A DNA stretch of 32,000 nucleotides from Candidatus Saccharimonadota bacterium (GTDB lineage: Bacteria; Patescibacteriota; Microgenomatia; UBA1406; GWC2-37-13): the NCBI GenBank assembly GCA_016700135.1, contig CP065004.1:1200001-1232000 (forward strand), read 5' to 3'. The notes below the pieces were generated by a model. The model worked only from the letters and a program-made list of their open reading frames with translations. It searched no databases and had not been told where the DNA came from. The first letter of the stretch is position 1; each line of letters starts with the position of its first letter. A program made the translations under genes and the position numbers. Below are positions 4,041 through 31,991 of this stretch, piece after piece.

Positions 4041-4511
4041 ATGAAAGAAAATCAGTTGTATAATGAATGCATGAAACAAATACAGAGACGCATTCTGACA
4101 ACCGCACGGATTCTGTTCGGATTGCTGTTTTTGGATGCCGGTATCGAAAAACTGCTCAATGGTTTTTCGGCGAAAAAGTACCTTGAAGCGACCACTTACG
4201 GTCCGTTTGCAGATATTTTTCAATCAATGGCGGGCAGTCCTGTTGTCGATTTCCTGGTGGTAGGCGGAGAAATTGCGATAGGAATCGCTCTTGTATCAGG
4301 CGTGTTTTTATGGTTTACCGCTTATGCCGGAAGTCTCATGATGATTATGTATTATTTTTCACAGTTTCCGCCGAAAACCGGAATCATCAACATGCACATC
4401 ATATATATCCTTTTATTCTTCATTCTTGCGGCATGTGAAGCCGGAAAATACGCCGGGCTTCAGCCGTTTGCTGACAGGATCATGAAACAACTATTCAGGA
4501 AGTCATCGTAG
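4041..4511 (+). CDS. DoxX-like small integral membrane protein
   Basis: 156-aa ORF with four predicted helices. The N-terminal RILFGLLFLDAGIEKLLNGF resembles the DoxX/DoxD family signature. Assignment rests on resemblance only. Confidence 0.5.
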   Translation: MKENQLYNECMKQIQRRILTTARILFGLLFLDAGIEKLLNGFSAKKYLEATTYGPFADIFQSMAGSPVVDFLVVGGEIAIGIALVSGVFLWFTAYAGSLMMIMYYFSQFPPKTGIINMHIIYILLFFILAACEAGKYAGLQPFADRIMKQLFRKSS

Positions 4512-6874: not shown

Positions 6875-7993
6875 TGAATAAGTTACGAAAGATATGGCAC
6901 TCATAGGGAACTAACATCTATGAGTAAATGGGGAGGAGATCAGCTTCGAGTAATTAGGAGTTATGACTGGCAGTACAATAGAGATCTTATGAAAAAGATA
7001 CGATCTCTATCAGACTACAATCAGTCAGATGTAGCACAAATCAGAAACGATGTTCTGACATTTGCAGAGAAGTACGGGATACAAGCTGCAGTTGATGCAT
7101 ATGGGATATCACGAAGGACATTGTTTCGATGGAGGAAGAGACGGCGAGATTCAGAAGGGCAGTTGGATAGCCTGATACCAGAGACAACCAAGCCAAAGAC
7201 ACCCCGACGTATGGAGACTCACCCGAAGGTCATATCCTTTATCAAAGAGATTCGAGAACAATACTTTTGTTTGGGAAAGGAGAAGATCAAGCCCTTACTT
7301 GATGAGTATTGCCTACAGGAAGGAATTTCAACTATATCTGAGTCAACCATTGGAAAAGTGATCAAAAGACACAACCTGCAGCGCAAGACCTACCGGATCT
7401 ATCACAATCCAGCAAGTGGCTTTGCAAAACGGAAAGTAAAGTACCGACAGAAGGTCAAGCGGTCTCCCAAGGTGGAAGATACCGGATACATTGAGATTGA
7501 TACCATCACGAAGTTTGTACACGGAATCAAGCTGTATGTCTTCAATGCAGTGGACATCAAACTCAAATTCCAGTTCTCCTACGGATACTCAAAACTCAAC
7601 AGCCGAAACGGTGCTGATTTTATGAGAAGACTGGAACTAGTATACCCAATACAAGATGGTATAAAAACCATACAAACAGATAACGGCCTCGAGTATCTGG
7701 GAAACTTCCATGACTATCTGGAAGAAAACAATATCCCACACCTCTTTATCTACCCCAGATGTCCCAAGATCAATGCCTTTATTGAGCGAGCAAACAGAAC
7801 ACTCCAGGAAGAATTTATGAACCCCTACATCTATACCAAGTGGACCGGTATCGGATCATTCAATCGTCACCTTATTGAATACCTCGTCTGGTACAATACA
7901 AAGCGAGTTCACAAAAGCCTGAACAATATTTCACCTATGGATTACCTATTATCTATTTTACCTAAAGAGTGCCATATGTATGGAACTCATACA
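6875..7993 (+). mobile_element. IS481-like insertion sequence, copy 1 (1119 bp)
   Basis: Identical by visual comparison to 25521..26639. Imperfect terminal inverted repeats: IRL TGAATAAGTTACGAAAGATATGGCACTC, and the reverse complement of IRR TGTATGAGTTCCATACATATGGCACTC. Single rve/DDE transposase ORF. No clean target-site duplication (left flank ..ACTATC, right flank CACTAT..). Confidence 0.9.
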
Positions 7994-8459: not shown

Positions 8460-11400
8460 CTAACTACTCGATATCCCAAAAAATCTTTCAAAAAATTTTG
8501 TCAATTTATCAATTACTGTTTCTCTCTTTTTTGTTCTTTCACCTGTTGGTGTAAATCGAGATACAGGGGGAAGAACTCTTGTAAGCTCAGTACCAGATGT
8601 AGAAATATTCCCATTCCTAAAGGCATTTTTTATGAATTTGTAGGTAGCATCTCGGTCGAGGTTTTCTTTTTCAATTATTTGTTCTAGTTCCTCAACTTTT
8701 TTGCCTTCAACAAAATTTCTCCAGTCATCTTCAACTACAGAGTGAACATCCAAAGTTGAAATAAATTGATTAATAAGGTCTTTTTTGTTTCTGAGTTCAA
8801 CACTTGAGTCGATGGCTTTATTTATATCAATCAGTACTTCTTTGTTTTTTGTATGACTCTCATGATATTTCTTGATCAGCTGAAGAATATAATCAATATT
8901 AATATCCACTTGCTTGATAAGCTCCATTTCGAAAACTACATCATCATTTACATTTTCTTTCTCAACAGTAGCGGTATTTCTAAACTCATTGTAAAGATCG
9001 ATGTAGGCACTGTGATAATCTTGTACATCTCGATCAGTAAGTATCTCGTTTCCCGCAAATTCATCAAATGTTGTTAAAATATTTCTAAGTCTCAGAATTG
9101 AGCCATAGAGCTTGATGAAATCTTTTTGATCCTGCTCACCTAGAATTCGTTCACCAACAGGGAATCTAGATTGCAGCTCTGCTATAAGATCAACATAGCC
9201 TCGAACTTCTTTACCTTTATCCGAATAACCATTGTAATAATCTGAATATGCCTTTAAGAGGACAATGCCGCTTGCCTCCTTGTCTCCAAATAGCGAGAGA
9301 GATTCATTAGTTGCTTTTTCCAGATTTCGAAAGCAAACAATGTTTCCAAATGTTTTGACACTGTTAAGAATTCTATTTGTTCTAGAAAATGCTTGGAGCA
9401 GGCCATGCAAACGTAAATTTTTATCTACCCAGAGTGTATTCAGCGTTGTTGCATCAAATCCAGTAAGGAACATGTTCACGACAATCAAAATATCTACCTC
9501 ACGGCTTTTTACTCGTTCACTCACGTCTTTGTAGTAATTCTGAAACTTGTCTGAAGAAGTGTCAAAAGATGTTCCAAAATGTTTGTTATAGTCCTTGATC
9601 GCAGCTTCAAGAAAATCTCGAGAACTTTGATCGAGTCCACTTGTGTCTTCTGAATTCTCATCTACCATGCCATCAGCATCCTCGTCATTGACCCCAAAGC
9701 TATAGATGAGTGCTATTTTAAGTTGTTTATCTGAGGGAAGATCTGCGAGTTGTTTTTTAAACTCTGCATAGTATGTCTTTGCAAACTCAATGGATGAAAC
9801 GGCAAAAATTGAGTTAAAGCCTGCAAGGCGTCTATCTTTTATTTTATAAAAACTATTTCTTTTAGTTTTCTGGTCAAAATGCTCTCTGATGTAGGTGACA
9901 ATATTTGATATGCGCGTCGGATCAGAAAGTATTGCCTCACGATCGATATCACTGACTTTTTTGTCCTCAATATCTTCTGCTTCTCGAACTGTTGAAATAT
10001 AGTCCACCTTAAAAGGCAGAACATTCTTATCAGCGATTGCATCAACAATAGTATAGATGTGTAACTTTTCTCCAAAGGCTTGCTCAGTTGTTTTTAAATC
10101 AGGTCTGCCACTCGATGAAGCATTGATAGCAAAGATTGGAGTGCCCGTAAATCCGAATATATGATACTTAGTAAATGCTTTTGTGATTGCAGAATGCATG
10201 TTACCAAACTGTGATCTGTGGCATTCATCAAATATTAAAACTACATGTCCATCATAAATTGCATGACCGTTGTTTCTTCTAATGAATCGATCAAGCTTCT
10301 GAATTGTAGTTACAATTATTCGAGCATTTGGATTCTCGAGCTGTTTCTTTAAAATTGCCGTACTTGTATTGCTATTCGCAGCACCCTTCTCAAACTTGTC
10401 GTATTCGCGCATTGTTTGGTAATCGAGATCTTTTCTATCAACAATAAATAAGACCTTGTCGATGTACGGTAACTTACTTGCAAGTTGTGCAGTTTTGAAA
10501 CTGGTGAGCGTTTTACCAGAGCCAGTAGTATGCCAAACATACCCACCAGCTTCAGTTGTTCCCATCTTTTTGTAATTAGTACTAACTTCAATTCTGTTAA
10601 GTATTCTCTCCGTTGCGACGATTTGGTATGGTCGCATCACAAGTAGGAGCTTGTCTGTGGTAAATACACAATAACGAGTGAGGATATTGAGTAGTGAATG
10701 TTTTGCAAAAAATGTTTTGGCAAAATCCATGAGATCTGTAATGGGCTTATTGTTGGCGTCAGCCCACCAGCTGGTAAATTCGTAGCTGTTGCTCGTTCTT
10801 TTCCCTTTATTTACAGTCCCTTGTCTAGAATCCTTTATATGTTGAGATCGAGTCGTGTTGCTGTAGTACTTCGTATGAGTGCCGTTTGATATCACAAACA
10901 ATTGGACATACTCAAAAAGTCCTGATGCTGACCAAAAACTCTCTCTTTGATATCGATTAATTTGATTGAAAGCCTCTTGAATAGCAACACCTCTTCGCTT
11001 GAGCTCGATATGCACTAGAGGCAGTCCATTTACCAAAATTGTCACATCATATCTATTTGCCCGTTCACCTTCATCGGTAGAGTATTGATTTACCACTTGT
11101 AAAACATTGTCGTGGATAGTGTCTTTCTTGAGGAGATAAATATTCTTTACTGTGCCGTCATCACGAGAAAGGTTTTTAATATAATCCTCTTGAATCGTCA
11201 AAGTTTTTTCTGCAATGCTTTGATTGGGATTGGCGAGTTCGCTAGTAAAGAATCTTTCCCATTCCGAATCTGTGAAAGTAAATGCATTCAGTTTTTCCAG
11301 TTGAGCACGTAGGTTTTGTACTAAATCTCTTTCTGTTTTTATTCGAATATATTCATATGCCTGTGATTCAAGTTGTTTAATAAATTCTTTCTCAAGTTCT

Positions 11401-20336: not shown

Positions 20337-20357
20337 GTATGTTTCGGGTTTGCCTTG

Positions 20358-20440
20358 GTAAGCTTGTAACCTTAAATTAGAATTTATGTTATCCTGACCG
20401 CCGATTGGCGGATTGATTCAGGAACCATATCATAATTATC
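20358..20440 (+). repeat. Intergenic hairpin repeat, module M1, copy A
   Basis: GGTAAGCTTGTAACC lead-in. Long imperfect hairpin with inner stem TCCTGA/TCAGGA around the tip CCGCC-GATT-GGCGG (20398-20411). Confidence 0.7.
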
Positions 20441-20531
20441 GCTCGATACAATTTTTTATGCTCTGTGGGCGTGCTCGCCGGAATCAATAAGCTGCGCACC
20501 TCCCAATTCGCAAAAAAATTACATCTTCGCT
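20441..20531 (-). repeat. Intergenic hairpin repeat, module M2, copy A (inverted relative to M1)
   Basis: The reverse complement reads GCGAAGATGTAATTTTTTTGCGAATTGGGAGGTGCGCAGCTTATTGATTCCGGCGAGCACGCCCACAGAGCATAAAAAATTGTATCGAGC. This is nearly identical to 30066-30157 on the + strand. Confidence 0.8.
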
Positions 20532-20690
20532 CAAATTTATTTTCCTTTCATTCCAAACTTTGAGCCATAAGTTCATCGTCTCATGGACGGGTTTCAGATC
20601 TTATTGAAAGACAGTGCCGAACTCCCAATCCCTCTCTCAGACTCAATTCTCCTTTACAAACTATATATTATAGGCTATAATACATATTCA

Positions 20691-25113: not shown

Positions 25114-25139
25114 TGTATCTTTTCACCTGATCGACTAAA

Positions 25140-25172
25140 CACCCTCTGAAGCTAGCCGGAGGGTGTTTTTTT
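25140..25172 (+). terminator. Rho-independent terminator
   Basis: 7-bp GC-rich stem CACCCTC/GAGGGTG (25140-25146 / 25159-25165), a 12-nt loop, then T7 (25166-25172). Lies 27 nt after the stop codon. Confidence 0.8.
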
Positions 25173-25216
25173 GGGTTATATTTTCATCCTGCATTGGTTT
25201 CAAGATCTGTGTTTAT

Positions 25217-25302
25217 AAGCTTGTAACCGAAAATTTGTTCGGAAGTGAACTCTCCGCCAGCTGGCGGATCGAACATCCACTTCACTCACAAATTTTGATT
25301 AC
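25217..25302 (+). repeat. Intergenic hairpin repeat, module M1, copy B
   Basis: AAGCTTGTAACC lead-in. Nested stems GTAACCGAAAATTTGT/ACAAATTTTGATTAC and GAAGTG/CACTTC surround the tip CCGCC-AGCT-GGCGG (25254-25267). About 95% identical to copy C by eye. Confidence 0.85.
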
Positions 25303-25330
25303 TGCGCTTAACAAGTAGCTTTTCTGTGTG

Positions 25331-25417
25331 CTCGATGAAATTTTTTTGCGACTTGGGAGGTGCGCAGCTGACAGATTCTGGCGAGCACGCCCACAGAGCT
25401 AAAAAAATCACATCGAG
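25331..25417 (+). repeat. Intergenic hairpin repeat, module M2, copy B
   Basis: CTCGATGAAATTTTTTTGCGACTTGGGAGGTGC...GCACGCCCACAGAGCTAAAAAAATCACATCGAG. The basal stem is CTCGATG/CATCGAG, T7 pairs with A7, and the inner stem is GGG(AG)GTGC/GCAC(G)CCC. The apical loop is variable. Confidence 0.85.
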
Positions 25418-25520
25418 ACTAAAGAATTTACTTAGAATCCCGAACCTGTTCATAAGACGATAAACCAGAGCTCAGAATTCGGGATGACAAATACATGTCA
25501 ATATATCAACAATCTTCTTA

Positions 25521-26639
25521 TGAATAAGTTACGAAAGATATGGCACTCATAGGGAACTAACATCTATGAGTAAATGGGGAGGAGATCAGCTTCGAGTAAT
25601 TAGGAGTTATGACTGGCAGTACAATAGAGATCTTATGAAAAAGATACGATCTCTATCAGACTACAATCAGTCAGATGTAGCACAAATCAGAAACGATGTT
25701 CTGACATTTGCAGAGAAGTACGGGATACAAGCTGCAGTTGATGCATATGGGATATCACGAAGGACATTGTTTCGATGGAGGAAGAGACGGCGAGATTCAG
25801 AAGGGCAGTTGGATAGCCTGATACCAGAGACAACCAAGCCAAAGACACCCCGACGTATGGAGACTCACCCGAAGGTCATATCCTTTATCAAAGAGATTCG
25901 AGAACAATACTTTTGTTTGGGAAAGGAGAAGATCAAGCCCTTACTTGATGAGTATTGCCTACAGGAAGGAATTTCAACTATATCTGAGTCAACCATTGGA
26001 AAAGTGATCAAAAGACACAACCTGCAGCGCAAGACCTACCGGATCTATCACAATCCAGCAAGTGGCTTTGCAAAACGGAAAGTAAAGTACCGACAGAAGG
26101 TCAAGCGGTCTCCCAAGGTGGAAGATACCGGATACATTGAGATTGATACCATCACGAAGTTTGTACACGGAATCAAGCTGTATGTCTTCAATGCAGTGGA
26201 CATCAAACTCAAATTCCAGTTCTCCTACGGATACTCAAAACTCAACAGCCGAAACGGTGCTGATTTTATGAGAAGACTGGAACTAGTATACCCAATACAA
26301 GATGGTATAAAAACCATACAAACAGATAACGGCCTCGAGTATCTGGGAAACTTCCATGACTATCTGGAAGAAAACAATATCCCACACCTCTTTATCTACC
26401 CCAGATGTCCCAAGATCAATGCCTTTATTGAGCGAGCAAACAGAACACTCCAGGAAGAATTTATGAACCCCTACATCTATACCAAGTGGACCGGTATCGG
26501 ATCATTCAATCGTCACCTTATTGAATACCTCGTCTGGTACAATACAAAGCGAGTTCACAAAAGCCTGAACAATATTTCACCTATGGATTACCTATTATCT
26601 ATTTTACCTAAAGAGTGCCATATGTATGGAACTCATACA
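25521..26639 (+). mobile_element. IS481-like insertion sequence, copy 2 (1119 bp) with a 5-bp target-site duplication
   Basis: Identical by visual comparison to 6875..7993. Flanked by the direct repeat TCTTA (25516-25520 and 26640-26644). Confidence 0.92.
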
Positions 26640-26648: not shown

Positions 26649-26673
26649 CAATTTTGTACAGCTGTACTAAATT
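26645..26673 (+). promoter_or_regulatory. lexA promoter (TTGACA-N17-TAAATT)
   Basis: -35 TTGACA at 26645-26650, a 17-bp spacer, and -10 TAAATT at 26668-26673, 29 nt upstream of the lexA ATG. Confidence 0.6.
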
Positions 26674-26699
26674 GAAGTATACTATTAGTTCAGCTGTAC
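26656..26699 (+). promoter_or_regulatory. Two candidate LexA operators (GTAC-N4-GTAC type)
   Basis: A perfect 12-bp palindrome GTACAGCTGTAC (26656-26667) lies inside the promoter spacer. A second near-copy, GTTCAGCTGTAC (26688-26699), ends 3 nt before the ATG. Confidence 0.55.
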
Positions 26700-26702
26700 G
26701 AT

Positions 26703-27266
26703 ATGAAAGACGACAAATACGACATCCTAAGACGGTTCTACTTTAAATACCACTACATTCCGTCATTCCGTGAAATGAAAGACCTCTTTCACCTGCAGTC
26801 TCCCGGTGCAGTCGGCTACTGGATCAACCACTGGAAAGAAGAAGGATTTTTGGAAGTAAACAAAGAAAAGCTTATTCCGACGGACCGTTTTTTTGAATTT
26901 CCCCTTCTGGGTTCCATTCAGGCGGGTTTCCCGCAGGATGAACAGGAGAATTACGAGACGGTAACGCTTGTTCCGTTTACGATTGAAAATCCTGCCGACA
27001 CCTATGTTCTGAAGGTCAGAGGAGATTCAATGGAAGGCGCCGGAATCATAGAAGGAGACCTTGTCGTTTTGGACAAATCCCTCCGTCCCCAAACGGCCGA
27101 CATCGTCGCCGCTTTTATTGATGATGAATGGACACTCAAATACTATTTTGATAAAAACGGAAGAATATATTTGAAGGCCGCAAATAAAAAATATCCTGAC
27201 ATTTTCCCGAAGCGTAAGCTTGAAATCGGCGGCGTTGTCATCAAGGTTGTCAGAGAATACCGATAA
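26703..27266 (+). CDS. lexA: LexA-type SOS repressor (S24 peptidase)
   Basis: 187 aa. N-terminal winged HTH (IPSFREMKDLFHLQSPGAVGYWINHWKEEGFL). Ala-Gly cleavage site in GSIQAGFP. Catalytic Ser in VRGDSMEGAGI and Lys in DEWTLKYY. Confidence 0.85.
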   Translation: MKDDKYDILRRFYFKYHYIPSFREMKDLFHLQSPGAVGYWINHWKEEGFLEVNKEKLIPTDRFFEFPLLGSIQAGFPQDEQENYETVTLVPFTIENPADTYVLKVRGDSMEGAGIIEGDLVVLDKSLRPQTADIVAAFIDDEWTLKYYFDKNGRIYLKAANKKYPDIFPKRKLEIGGVVIKVVREYR

Positions 27267-28868: not shown

Positions 28869-29912
28869 ATGAGCTTTATGAACAGAGAAGATTTTATTTT
28901 TTCCTCCCAACAGCTTTCGGAGTATTTGAAATCGAAGGGTATCAAATTCAATCCTGAAGAGATACACATAACGGAAAATAAGCATTTTTATCTTTTGATT
29001 CCGAAATACTATATTGACCTGATCGACTGGTCCGATCCTCACGATTCTCTGAAAAAGATGGTTCTTCCCAACAGTCTTGAAGATAGAATATACGATTATG
29101 AACTGCAGGATCCGATCGGTGATCATGTTCATGAGCCGGTTCCCGGCATTGTGCACCGTTATCCTGACCGATGTCTGTTGATGCTGACCAACGTCTGTGC
29201 CGTACATTGCCGTTTCTGTTTCAGAAAAAATCTTCTTGATACCAACAAAGCACATTATGAAGATGCGATGATGTACATTGAAAAGCATGAAGGACTCAGA
29301 GAAGTTATTCTTTCGGGAGGAGACCCGTTCATGCTTACCGATCACTTTTTGAAAAAGGTTATCGACCGCCTCACTGGTGTCAAACATCTCAGCATCATCA
29401 GATTTCACACACGTACACCGGCGGTGTATCCGAAACGGGTGACCCAAGAGTTTCTGGAATGCATAACGGGACAAAAGCAAACCATCGTTGTCATCCATAT
29501 CAACCATCCGCGGGAGATAACGGAAGAATTTGTCGGAAGGGTAACGGAAATGAAAAATCGCGGGATCATGCTTCTTTCACAGACCGTCCTTATGAAAGAT
29601 ATCAATAACACTGCTGAAACTCTGTCCTCGCTTTTCACGCAATTGGCCAATATCGGAGTAAAGCCCTACTATCTCCATCACCTCGACCCGGCTGCAGGTA
29701 CTCATCACTTCCGTGTCTCAGTCGAAGAAGGAAAAAAGATCTATCAGTCAATCCGGGGCAAAATATCAGGATACTGTATCCCCGAATACGTCATCGACAC
29801 CCCCGGAGGCCACGGCAAAATCCCCGTCATGTGGTTTGAAAAAATATCTGAAAAAGAATATCAGGCTGTCAATTTTCAAGGGAAAACGATTCGATATACG
29901 GACCATTACTAA
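28869..29912 (+). CDS. KamA-family radical SAM aminomutase (lysine 2,3-aminomutase/EpmB-like)
   Basis: 347 aa. CxxxCxxC cluster CAVHCRFCFRK, then ILSGGDPF, HINHPREIT and PYYLHHLD. Its size is closer to EpmB (YjeK) than to clostridial KamA. Confidence 0.85.
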   Translation: MSFMNREDFIFSSQQLSEYLKSKGIKFNPEEIHITENKHFYLLIPKYYIDLIDWSDPHDSLKKMVLPNSLEDRIYDYELQDPIGDHVHEPVPGIVHRYPDRCLLMLTNVCAVHCRFCFRKNLLDTNKAHYEDAMMYIEKHEGLREVILSGGDPFMLTDHFLKKVIDRLTGVKHLSIIRFHTRTPAVYPKRVTQEFLECITGQKQTIVVIHINHPREITEEFVGRVTEMKNRGIMLLSQTVLMKDINNTAETLSSLFTQLANIGVKPYYLHHLDPAAGTHHFRVSVEEGKKIYQSIRGKISGYCIPEYVIDTPGGHGKIPVMWFEKISEKEYQAVNFQGKTIRYTDHY

Positions 29913-29963: not shown

Positions 29964-30049
29964 AAGCTCGTAACCAAAAATTTGTTCGGAAGTGAACTCT
30001 CCGCCAGCTGGCGGATCGGACATCCACTTCGCTCACAAATTTTGATTAC
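29964..30049 (+). repeat. Intergenic hairpin repeat, module M1, copy C
   Basis: AAGCTCGTAACC lead-in. Stems GTAACCAAAAATTTGT/ACAAATTTTGATTAC and GAAGTG/CACTTC surround the tip CCGCC-AGCT-GGCGG (30001-30014). Confidence 0.85.
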
Positions 30050-30069
30050 TTCGCTTTAATAAAAGCGAA

Positions 30070-30157
30070 GATACCGATTTTTTTTGCGACTTGGGAGGTG
30101 CGCAGCTTATATATTCCGGCGAGCACGCCCACAGAGCATAAAAAAATCGTATCGAGC
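30070..30157 (+). repeat. Intergenic hairpin repeat, module M2, copy C
   Basis: GATACCGATTTTTTTTGCGACTTGGGAGGTGC...GCACGCCCACAGAGCATAAAAAAATCGTATCGAGC. The basal stem GATACCGA/TCGTATC differs from copy B but remains complementary. Confidence 0.85.
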
Positions 30158-30173
30158 AATAAAATCATCCCCC

Positions 30174-31991
30174 TTACCACCACTCATCATCCTCAACGGC
30201 CTCATACTCCTCCTCATCCTCTTTTCTGATAAACCGTGACTTCATCGCCTCATTCCGGCGCCCGAAAATCATCCGCCTCCTGGCATGGGTGATGTACAGT
30301 TTGTCTTTTGCCCGCGTTATCCCCACATAAAACAATCGCCGTTCCTCTTCAAGCTGATGCAGATCATCAATTGACCGTGAATGGGGAAGTATCCCCTCTT
30401 CAAGTCCCGTGATAAATACATAATCAAACTCCAACCCCTTTGCCTGGTGAAGAGTCATCAGACGTACACCGTCTTTACTTTTTCCTCCCTTTTCCCCTTC
30501 AAAATACTCAGATTCGACCAGTGCCACCTGCTCGAGAAACTCGACGATATTCGGGAAACTGAGAGCAACGGATTTCAGCTCCTTGATGTTTTCAAGTCTG
30601 GCATAGTCTTCGGGAATATCAGGATCATACAGGCCGAGATACTCCGTCGATTCGAACACCTGATCCATAAGTTCGATTGTCGGAATTTCCTCAACGTTTT
30701 CTTTGATATTCAGATACAGATCTTTGAACGCACTGAATCTTCTTTTCCCGATTTTTTTGACCCTTTCCAATGCTACCGTATCTTCAGGATGCAGGAACAA
30801 CCGTAAATACGAAAGTATGTCTTTAATTTCTTTTCGTTCATAAAACCTTGTCCCGCCAATCAATGTATACGGGATCCCGTAATGAAGAAATACCTCTTCG
30901 ATCGCACGTGACTGTGCGTTCGTCCGATACAGGACGGCAATGTCTGAGTATTGCGCTTTATTTGCGAGCTGCTGTATCACGTTTGCGATATAAATCGCCT
31001 CATCTTCTTCATTGTCAGCCGTATAGTACGTGATTTCTTCTCCGCCGTCGGCCTCGGTAAAAAGCTGCAGGATCGGATGGGTCTGATTTTCGGATATGAC
31101 TTCATACGCAAAATCGAGAATGTTTTGGGTAGAGCGATAATTTTGTTCCAGATTGATGACAACTGCTTCCGGAAAATCTTCACTGAATTTTTCAAGGTTC
31201 CTGATATCGGCACCGCGCCATGAATAAATACTCTGAGAGAAGTCACCGACAACCGTAATATTTTTGTGCTTTTCAGCAAGTTTTTGTGTCAGGACATACT
31301 GAGCGACGTTTGTGTCCTGGAACTCATCCACCAGAAGAAATTGATACCTGTCCTGATATTTTTCCAAAACGGGAGGATGTTTGCTGAAAAGCTCAACCAC
31401 CTTCATGATAAGATCGTCAAAATCCAGTGCATGATTTTTCTTCAATTCTTTCTGATACTGGTGATAAACCTCGGCTACTTCAGCGGCTTTGTAATATGAA
31501 AACAGTTCGAGATAATGACCCGGTGTGATAAGCTGATTTTTCGCTTCGGAGATTTTTGAAGAAAAGAAGCGCGGCGAGTATTTTGTGTTTATATTTTTCA
31601 AAATCTGCTTCAATACCTGCTGCTGATCGTCATCATCATAAATGACAAAATCACGCGGAATACCGATATGCTCTCCGTCGCGTCTGAGAAGCATACAGCA
31701 AAATGAATGAAAGGTCCCGACATAGCCGAGTGTTGCTTCATTTCCCGTCGATTTTGCGATCCTCTCTTTCATCTCACGTGCAGCTTTATTGGTGAAAGTG
31801 ATCATCACGATTTGATGAGGGTCAACCTGATGATTTTCAATAAGATTCAGGACTTTATGAATAAGGACTCTCGTCTTGCCCGATCCCGCCCCGGCAAGCA
31901 CCACCGACGGGCCTTCCACAATTTTGACTGCCTGCTGTTGCTGGGTATTTAAGCCTTTGAGTACATCGACCATAGAGTATAATGATACCAA
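30174..31991 (-). CDS. UvrD/PcrA/Rep-family SF1 DNA helicase (short form)
   Basis: 605 aa. Motif I AGAGSGKTRVL, motif II LLVDEFQDTN, VVGDFSQSIYSWRGA, LEQNYRST, MTLHQAKGLEFDYVFI and YVGITRAKDKL. Acidic tail ending in WW. The start is 9 nt from the window end. Confidence 0.9.
   Translation of the reverse strand: MVSLYSMVDVLKGLNTQQQQAVKIVEGPSVVLAGAGSGKTRVLIHKVLNLIENHQVDPHQIVMITFTNKAAREMKERIAKSTGNEATLGYVGTFHSFCCMLLRRDGEHIGIPRDFVIYDDDDQQQVLKQILKNINTKYSPRFFSSKISEAKNQLITPGHYLELFSYYKAAEVAEVYHQYQKELKKNHALDFDDLIMKVVELFSKHPPVLEKYQDRYQFLLVDEFQDTNVAQYVLTQKLAEKHKNITVVGDFSQSIYSWRGADIRNLEKFSEDFPEAVVINLEQNYRSTQNILDFAYEVISENQTHPILQLFTEADGGEEITYYTADNEEDEAIYIANVIQQLANKAQYSDIAVLYRTNAQSRAIEEVFLHYGIPYTLIGGTRFYERKEIKDILSYLRLFLHPEDTVALERVKKIGKRRFSAFKDLYLNIKENVEEIPTIELMDQVFESTEYLGLYDPDIPEDYARLENIKELKSVALSFPNIVEFLEQVALVESEYFEGEKGGKSKDGVRLMTLHQAKGLEFDYVFITGLEEGILPHSRSIDDLHQLEEERRLFYVGITRAKDKLYITHARRRMIFGRRNEAMKSRFIRKEDEEEYEAVEDDEWW

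Follow-up and report, generated by a model that had tools for sequence, protein, structure and literature searches.

What kind of element is the hairpin that recurs three times in a 32,000-nucleotide (nt) stretch of the Candidatus Saccharimonadota bacterium contig CP065004.1 (positions 1,200,001 to 1,232,000 of the forward strand; this whole stretch is referred to below as the window)? An earlier note, prepared from the letters of the window, had described at positions 30070-30157 a hairpin of about 88 nt, called M2, and had considered it typical of either a structured RNA or a miniature mobile element. Here we report that M2 is a previously undescribed family of palindromic repeats of about 95-98 nt in Microgenomates-type bacteria of the candidate phyla radiation (CPR). 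As to the choice left by the earlier note, the fold was upheld, and the evidence favors a mobile element, though not a classical cut-and-paste miniature inverted-repeat transposable element (MITE). Specifically, M2 is probably a non-autonomous, dispersed mobile palindromic repeat of the kind represented by the Rickettsia palindromic elements (RPEs) and by the doublets (REPINs) of repetitive extragenic palindromic sequences (REPs). A mobile element is preferred to an RNA gene because copies lie in frame within open reading frames (ORFs) in both orientations, because sites are found filled and empty, because copies are flipped, and because neither a promoter nor a terminator is attached to them.

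The window contains three imperfect hairpins of 95-98 nt that share an exact core. Copy C, the one described in the earlier note, occupies 30062-30159 on the plus strand; copy B lies at 25326-25420 on the plus strand, and copy A at 20439-20533 on the minus strand. The sequences TTGGGAGGTGCGCAGC and GCGAGCACGCCCACAGAGC each had exactly three zero-mismatch matches in the window (chance expectations of 0.08 and 0.00, respectively), at 20491-20506 and 20460-20478 in copy A (minus), 25353-25368 and 25381-25399 in copy B (plus), and 30091-30106 and 30119-30137 in copy C (plus), bearing out the claim of three copies with a common core. In copy C, the 5′ half of this core (UUGGGAGGUGCGCAG, 30091-30105, plus) is the same in all three window copies and near-invariant in 59 distinct homologues, in which the search patterns had fixed most of it, and CGAGCACGCCCACAGAGC (30120-30137, plus) forms the conserved 3′ half of the asymmetric core; the apical segment at 30106-30119 (plus) differs among the three window copies.

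Minimum-free-energy folding of the strand carrying GGGAGG gave one long irregular hairpin for each copy (-30 to -34 kcal/mol, z -2.5 to -4.9; -33.9 kcal/mol and z -4.9 for copy C, -34.4 kcal/mol for copy B). The opposite strand folded less well in copies A and C (z -1.3 and -1.9, respectively) and about equally well in copy B (z -3.9). As the earlier note had proposed, the folds contained the stem of T-run and A-run, the inner stem of GGG(AG)GUGC with GCAC(G)CCC, the variable apex, and basal extensions that differ between copies and stay complementary. At the base of copy B, a perfect complement, CUCGAUG/CAUCGAG, stands in place of the GAA/GA loop. On the GGGAGG strand, the window copies reached 78-93 bits with a covariance model (R1) built from 28 copies (93 bits, E 3e-24, for copy C; 77.9 bits for copy B; 91.3 bits for copy A), versus 15-22 bits on the other strand. 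The limits of about 88 nt proposed for copy C were slightly too narrow; the model widened the element to 30062-30159, as two features are found beyond the basal extension, a closing GC/GC pair and a conserved 3x2 internal loop (GAA/GA). One further R1 match, at 30351-30430 inside a presumably uvrD-like ORF (E 0.037), was weak and was judged to be due to chance. ARAGORN detected no tRNA or tmRNA in the window. All three window copies sit in intergenic spacers (0/3 intragenic). Copy C lies between the convergent genes 28869-29912 (plus), which is radical-SAM/lysine aminomutase-like, and 30174-31991 (minus), which we take, from its translation alone, to be UvrD-like; copy B has a canonical terminator upstream of it and an insertion sequence (IS) downstream; and copy A is antisense to both of its flanking plus-strand genes.

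Homologues were collected by scanning GTDB species genomes with a pattern that fixed the inner core only, which returned 54 loci. About 25 of these were clear homologues, all in low-GC genomes (34-46% GC), and the high-GC matches (Streptomyces and others) were rejected as chance matches of a GC-rich pattern. A scan of metagenomes brought in 52 more loci, almost all genuine (about 50), and an exact-pattern scan of viral contigs gave 0 matches. By the names of the metagenome-assembled genomes (MAGs), the hosts were Candidatus Roizmanbacteria, Microgenomates, and Patescibacteria. The copies from genomes and metagenomes were pooled into an alignment of 59 distinct copies; both collection scans demanded an exact core, and the conservation of the core in this alignment is thus partly a matter of ascertainment. 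Besides the three copies in the window, up to 3 copies per 8-kb locus were found elsewhere, clustered within a few kb. Searches of Rfam at the gathering score, covering the window and 11 homologous loci, yielded no match except one unrelated tRNA, and a search around copy C at E<=10 returned only a 13.6-bit chance match to a Brucella small RNA (sRNA; gathering score 155); the earlier note had likewise named no RNA family for M2. In full-text literature searches, no account of elements of this type was found for CPR, Patescibacteria, or Microgenomates.

As a separate observation on the hosts, five element-bearing third-party MAGs (CAYMVU, CAZBEF, CAZDDM, CAYHIW, and CAYSQE), among them the closest relative of the window, were deposited as 'uncultured Gammaproteobacteria'; they account for loci L002, L005, L006, L015, L019, L023, L024, L026, L027, L031, L037, L040, and L051. 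The other named hosts are all Microgenomates or Patescibacteria. This label is probably wrong.

The covariation claimed in the earlier note was weak when judged on three near-identical copies and became strong with the 59 distinct homologues. A structure of 29 pairs was written on the pooled alignment, and controls were made by sliding the 3′ partners by 1-3 columns. Paired cells amounted to 90.3%, versus 30-51% in the slid controls, and the covariation score was 0.348, versus 0.05-0.10. Nineteen pairs were changed on both sides, and covariation was located in the closing stem, the long middle stem, and the apical hairpin; the inner core was invariant in the alignment because the search patterns had fixed it. 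Moreover, the GGGAGG strand contained 96 G·U pairs versus 34 A·C mismatches. This excess indicates that selection acts on the fold of one strand, as a single strand, and that M2 is more than a double-stranded inverted repeat.

From the outside inward, the element consists of a closing stem, P1, of 0-10 bp and free sequence; a conserved 3x2 purine loop (5′-GNA/5′-RA); a covarying stem, GAUAC.../...GUAUC; a U-run/A-run (the window type) or UUUCGAAC/GUGAGAAA; the near-invariant asymmetric core UUGGG-AG-GUGC-GCAG ... CGA-GCAC-G-CCCAC; and an apical mini-hairpin of free sequence, which is a clean, covarying hairpin in most homologues. The 5′ end of the element reads (A)AGC-GNA-G, the length varies from 94 to 107 nt across the family, and the most conserved part of M2 is its interior, not its termini. 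A kink-turn at the base was considered, given that GC-GAA-GA.../...GA-GC resembles Kt-7. The covariation register there is Watson-Crick (G9-C133; A10-U132, which is A-U in 53 copies and G-C in 3), so the basal motif is a 3x2 purine loop and a kink-turn is excluded. A small ORF or toxin peptide within the element was also rejected, since apex lengths in intergenic copies vary out of frame.

The earlier note had treated a second module, M1, as a separate entity. M1 is, however, a sibling hairpin family of M2 on the opposite strand, within the same superfamily. One M1 copy (29964-30057, minus; -42 kcal/mol, z -6.8, versus -28.5 kcal/mol on the plus strand) stands head-to-head with M2 copy C, their 5′ ends 6 nt apart, and a second (25217-25310, minus; -42 kcal/mol, z -6.5) stands head-to-head with M2 copy B; these two full copies are 95% identical to each other and fold on the minus strand at -42 kcal/mol, versus about -29 kcal/mol on the plus strand. 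The basal architecture of M1 (AAGC-GNA-GUAAUC ... GGUUAC-RA-GCUU) is that of M2, and R1 found M1 by its basal module alone (E 0.0025 at locus C and 0.016 at locus B). At loci B and C, M1(-) and M2(+) form head-to-head doublets, with a distance of 6-30 nt between the 5′ ends. At locus A, M2 on the minus strand is directly followed by a degenerate M1-like remnant on the same strand (20352-20440, minus), which has GGUUACAAGCUU and a CCGCC..GGCGG apex in common with M1 and folds weakly (z -1.7). M1 has one and the same apical hairpin throughout the window genome and a wholly different one in the close relative, and among the collected loci the M1 sequence type occurred only in these two genomes. 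Four other loci (L004, L031, L029, and L020) retain the basal module with different interiors.

At the DNA level, copies of M2 come and go, change orientation, and are overwritten in part. Of three orthologous genes for the acetyl-CoA synthetase Acs, 68-70% identical, that of L021 carries M2 at both of two sites, that of L082 at site 1 only (site 2 being empty), and that of L046 at site 2 only (site 1 being empty). The window itself is syntenic with contig CAZDDM010000001.1 at 87-95% identity; tblastn of the window proteins against the loci matched only this syntenic MAG, plus one LexA homologue in L015 (44% identity). Locus C is collinear between the two genomes. At locus A, the related MAG carries M2 in the opposite orientation and lacks the M1-like remnant (L040), and at locus B, where the flanks are 97-100% identical, it has the entire M1+M2 pair (about 210 bp) in flipped orientation; over loci A and B together, the flanks of the flipped elements are 88-100% identical to the syntenic MAG. 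The flipped locus-B pair is only about 81% identical to the window pair, which is closer to a copy at another locus (89%). With flanks at 97-100%, this divergence indicates replacement or re-insertion and not a simple switch. What moves or flips as a unit in this genome is apparently the pair of M1(-) and M2(+) in head-to-head arrangement, about 210 bp in all.

Exchange was also evident within the element. In two contigs with flanks 95% identical, the same insertion carried a completely different apical hairpin. In CAZBEF, as also among the M1 copies, the copies had a common apex within the genome and middle stems that differed with compensation, which points to gene conversion between copies. 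The check for target-site duplications that the earlier note had called for was run on the flanks of the 59 copies, and neither duplications nor direct repeats were seen; the closing stem merely varies in length. M2 therefore cannot be classed with the classical cut-and-paste MITEs.

In many relatives, M2 is also found within long ORFs in both orientations, with the reading frame continuing and no stop codon. About half of the distinct copies lie in ORFs, and one third of those are antisense; copies that broke an ORF would have been counted as intergenic in our classing procedure. Sense-orientation hosts are Acs (two sites), the methionyl-tRNA formyltransferase Fmt, MiaA, the NAD synthetase NadE, a group-1 glycosyltransferase (GT1), and large surface and membrane proteins. 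Antisense-orientation hosts are LepA/EF4, leucyl-tRNA synthetase (LeuRS), and another glycosyltransferase, together with what are presumably, as recognized from their translations only, a DprA-like protein and an M16-type peptidase. Host identity was established with Pfam for Acs, Fmt, MiaA, NadE, GT1, and LeuRS, and by alignment to solved structures for LepA. Relative to solved structures of the host proteins, the element forms an extra loop, which in LepA inserts about 28 residues between the G domain and domain II (compared with four solved LepA structures). As a side observation, the same LepA (L096) contains a second extra segment of about 30 residues (residues 71-104; 4188-4290), which is N/Q-rich, of low complexity, non-palindromic, and unrelated to M2.

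Almost all in-ORF sense copies are exactly 98 nt long, and one is 86 nt, whereas intergenic copies vary from 94 to 107 nt. Moreover, in the sense copies the U7/A7 runs, which would create TAA codons, are replaced by stop-free sequence. Given that the surviving in-ORF copies preserve the frame and are free of stops, most likely they are translated, each giving a loop about 30 amino acids long. The usual sense-frame peptide reads EAKIPVSNDLGGAQ...ASTPTEVRNTVSS, and translation of in-ORF copies would yield peptides such as PVSNDLGGAQ and STPTEVRNTVSS. In Fmt, one orthologous insertion is read in different frames in two lineages, with length changes of 1 nt and 4 nt at its two ends, indicating that the nucleotide sequence and the fold are conserved, not the peptide. 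Orthologous copies in Acs, Fmt, and LepA have persisted while the host proteins diverged to 60-70% identity; conservation within these copies was 0.77-0.86, versus 0.52-0.73 in the flanking coding sequence, and compensatory changes were present. The Fmt gene of L101 (~955-990) differs from that of L094, otherwise identical in this sequence, by a 33-nt insertion, CCCCAAAGTAGAACCAGTTCACTTCGGGGCAGG, nested in the 5′ arm of M2. The nested insertion contains a mini-hairpin and preserves the frame, and its form hints at a second, smaller mobile hairpin.

Several other features of the window were noted. Two copies of an IS of 1119 bp (6875-7993 and 25521-26639), 100% identical, encode an rve-family (DDE) transposase with a helix-turn-helix domain. 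The second copy, just downstream of copy B, has a 5-bp duplication, TCTTA, at its flanks and no counterpart in the syntenic MAG; it is therefore a recent insertion. Derivation of M2 from this IS was rejected on the grounds that the IS ends are unrelated to M2 and that the IS is recent and absent from the related MAG. A canonical intrinsic terminator (25137-25178; a 12-bp stem followed by T7) follows a gene for a secreted protein with a Big_7 domain, lies just upstream of the M1/M2 pair at locus B, and is conserved in the related MAG. So is an inverted repeat with 19-nt arms (ATTTACTTAGAATCCCGAA/TTCGGGATGACAAATACAT) at 25426-25496, between copy B and the IS. Overlapping palindromes (ATTTTGTACAGCTGTACTAAATTG ... 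TTAGTTCAGCTGTACGAT) at 26649-26704 stand immediately upstream of ORF 26703-27266, which we take from its translation to be LexA-like; these palindromes may be an operator (SOS box).

How might such a repeat spread? If M2 is a mobile palindrome as proposed above, its propagation would require the element to be folded as a single strand of one polarity, and the conserved loops and bulges would serve as recognition features for a trans-acting enzyme. The likeliest enzyme would be an HUH/Y1 transposase of the REP-associated tyrosine transposase (RAYT)/IS200 kind, which acts on single-stranded DNA (ssDNA) hairpins and leaves no target-site duplication; this type is proposed because M2 combines the absence of such duplications with hairpin dependence and strand polarity. 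Copies settle in intergenic spacers, and in ORFs where only frame-preserving, stop-free copies survive; gene conversion between copies would homogenize the apex within a genome. The ssDNA/RAYT step is put forward tentatively, as a possibility that we hold to be rather doubtful.

The element-bearing contigs were searched for RAYT-like genes by tblastn with an IS200 TnpA sequence. An ORF in L064 (1558-2085, plus) scored 51 bits against NCBIfam REP_Tyr_transpos (cut-off 80) and 26.9 bits against Pfam Y1_Tnp (cut-off 23), the latter model having been run on this ORF only. Homologues of it were found in L079 (14265-14777, plus) and in L081 (2508-3176, plus) and L076 (~9717-9947), in the last case adjacent to, and in divergent orientation from, the lepA gene that bears an element (L081/L076). 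Over the RAYT-like ORFs, the NCBIfam scores were 44-59 bits. RAYT-like genes thus occurred on three independent element-bearing contigs, versus about 0.75 expected by chance, and we regard the RAYT link as a lead, not as a result.

Several points weigh against M2 being a mobile repeat of this kind. Neither an autonomous parent element nor a transposase for M2 was found in the window or beside most copies; the element does not flank the RAYT-like genes, which fall below the NCBIfam equivalog cut-off and do not occur in the window. With about three times the length of REPs, M2 also carries no GTAG or CGTC tag. Translation through the in-ORF copies is predicted from open frames. Finally, a core that is conserved, with compensatory changes, despite host identities of 60-70% shows more constraint than is usual for decaying selfish DNA and could point to a cellular function. 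That conservation can be explained in part by ascertainment, an exact core having been required, and in part by gene conversion from other copies. The window copies themselves probably serve no function that the cell requires; an incidental effect on mRNA stability is possible, since they form stable hairpins in 3′ regions.

Such constraint would be expected if M2 were instead a mobile structured module, of RNA or folded ssDNA, recognized through its core and GA loop by a conserved host factor of Microgenomates. The fold would then be kept by compensation inside essential genes while the hosts drift. The module could mark transcripts or DNA for processing, repair, or replication, or it could be excised reversibly at the hairpin base. 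We consider this unlikely; if true, M2 would represent a new class of hairpin element, domesticated in bacteria with minimal genomes.

Somewhat less likely again is that M2 is a cis-acting RNA hairpin of 3′ untranslated and intercistronic regions, giving protection from exonucleases or modulating termination as has been proposed for REP, ERIC, and BOX sequences, in which case the head-to-head M1/M2 pair would serve both convergent transcripts. The positions are suggestive, in that all three window copies and many homologues begin 10-50 nt past stop codons and take up the whole of short spacers, in several cases with convergent genes on either side; the fold is very stable and strand-biased, and the head-to-head pair is symmetrical for both directions of transcription. 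A function at 3′ ends makes no sense, however, for the half or so of distinct copies that lie in ORFs, a third of them antisense, and copy A is antisense to both neighboring genes. Nor is M2 an intrinsic terminator, since the T-run is 5′ and the A-run 3′ of the hairpin on both strands, and a consensus scan flagged no copy; at locus B, moreover, the pair is already preceded by the canonical terminator at 25137-25178. Secondary exaptation for such a role is possible, yet it leaves the conserved asymmetric core unexplained.

We consider it improbable that the copies are genes for a trans-acting structured small RNA, that is, a multicopy noncoding RNA with a protein-binding core and GA-rich loops. 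The strong covariation, the conserved internal loops, the variable apex, the excess of G·U pairs on one strand, and the conservation of the core across divergent genomes would all fit such genes. At the window copies, however, promoter-like sites were no commoner than in shuffled sequences and none stood upstream, the consensus scan found no terminator downstream of any window copy, and the M1 and M2 5′ ends are only 6-30 nt apart. In-frame copies in essential genes in both orientations, copies flipped or absent at orthologous sites, and the lack of an Rfam match likewise argue against this possibility.

It is very unlikely that M2 is a folded-DNA site for a site-specific recombinase, either attC-like or at the boundary of an inverton, with the M1/M2 pairs acting as invertible switches. 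M2 does resemble the attC sites of integrons in its conserved base, unpaired spacer, extrahelical bases, variable terminal structure, and strand selectivity; moreover, an M1+M2 pair is flipped as a unit between two close genomes, and copies cluster within a few kb. Its ends depart from the R′′/R′ consensus of attC (RYYYAAC ... GTTRRRY), however, and neither a cassette array nor an integrase was found among the ORFs examined, nor an integrase or invertase gene beside the copies examined. The neighbors are housekeeping genes, the in-ORF housekeeping copies do not fit cassette arrays, and the identity of the flipped pair (about 81%, with flanks at 97-100%) speaks for replacement. Least credible of all is that the in-gene copies are tiny intron-like elements, removed from the mRNA by the action of a host endonuclease and ligase at the hairpin base, with the intergenic copies merely parked: the hairpin does join both junctions at the conserved GA-rich loop, and it is the nucleotide sequence that is conserved and not the peptide, but every in-ORF copy found keeps its frame and is stop-free, in three sense frames and in antisense frames, and the fixed sense length of 98 or 86 nt and the frame-preserving nested 33-nt insertion would be needless if the copies were spliced.

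The preferred reading of M2 as a mobile palindromic repeat can be compared with several known systems. Classical MITEs differ from it clearly, in that the closing stem of M2 is 0-10 bp of free sequence, no target-site duplication accompanies it, and the ends of the rve-family IS of the window (25521-26639) are unrelated. The ERIC/IRU (enterobacterial repetitive intergenic consensus/intergenic repeat unit), Correia (Correia repeat enclosed element, CREE), and BOX/RUP/SPRITE elements have defined terminal inverted repeats, many of them with target-site duplications (TA for Correia), and belong to single genera. M2 resembles them as an imperfect, non-autonomous, dispersed palindrome that is transcribed within neighboring operons; in contrast to them, its closing stem is variable, it makes no duplication, and conservation is highest in its interior. 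Among intragenic MITEs, some carry ORFs (PMC10969869).

The likeness to REPs and REPINs is closer. M2 is likewise an imperfect hairpin with strand-specific features and no target-site duplication, it occurs in single and inverted-doublet forms of which the doublet (the M1/M2 pair) is seemingly a unit, it is mostly extragenic near gene ends, and RAYT-like genes are found on some M2-bearing contigs. REPs are 20-40 nt long, bear a GTAG or CGTC tag, and normally flank their own RAYT gene. M2, at about 95 nt, is without either tag, lies also in ORFs, and was not seen flanking the RAYT-like genes; because of its length and the absent tag, membership in the REPs themselves was rejected. A published survey covers the REPs (PMC3733652).

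RPEs are palindromic repeats of Rickettsia that lie in frame in unrelated genes and add a short peptide segment to the products (Ogata et al., 2000, cited via PMC10969869). The in-frame, stop-free coding palindromes of M2 correspond to the hallmark of RPEs as that review describes them (PMC10969869). Since 2000, Rickettsia has been the main source of known palindromes in frame within essential genes. As an independent family from CPR bacteria, M2 offers handles on the mobility of such repeats, on the folding strand and the acting enzyme, in its diverged copies, sharp core, filled and empty sites, flips, and candidate RAYT-like partners. For CPR annotation, insertions of about 30 amino acids in conserved enzymes and odd intergenic hairpins are now recognizable as one repeat family, and a covariance model of M2 in RNA and repeat libraries would avoid mistaking such hairpins for novel riboswitches or sRNAs. 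M2 differs from RPEs in that its host phylum (CPR/Microgenomates) is unrelated, the two being likened by kind, with a sequence relationship neither expected nor claimed; in that M2 lies in ORFs in both orientations, the same insertion being read in different frames between lineages; and in that its asymmetric core is near-invariant across a broad group of genomes, with a modular apex exchanged between copies. What the two families have in common is that both are palindromic repeats of the class of about 100-150 bp, both are dispersed in small genomes between genes and in frame within housekeeping genes, and neither has a transposase of its own.

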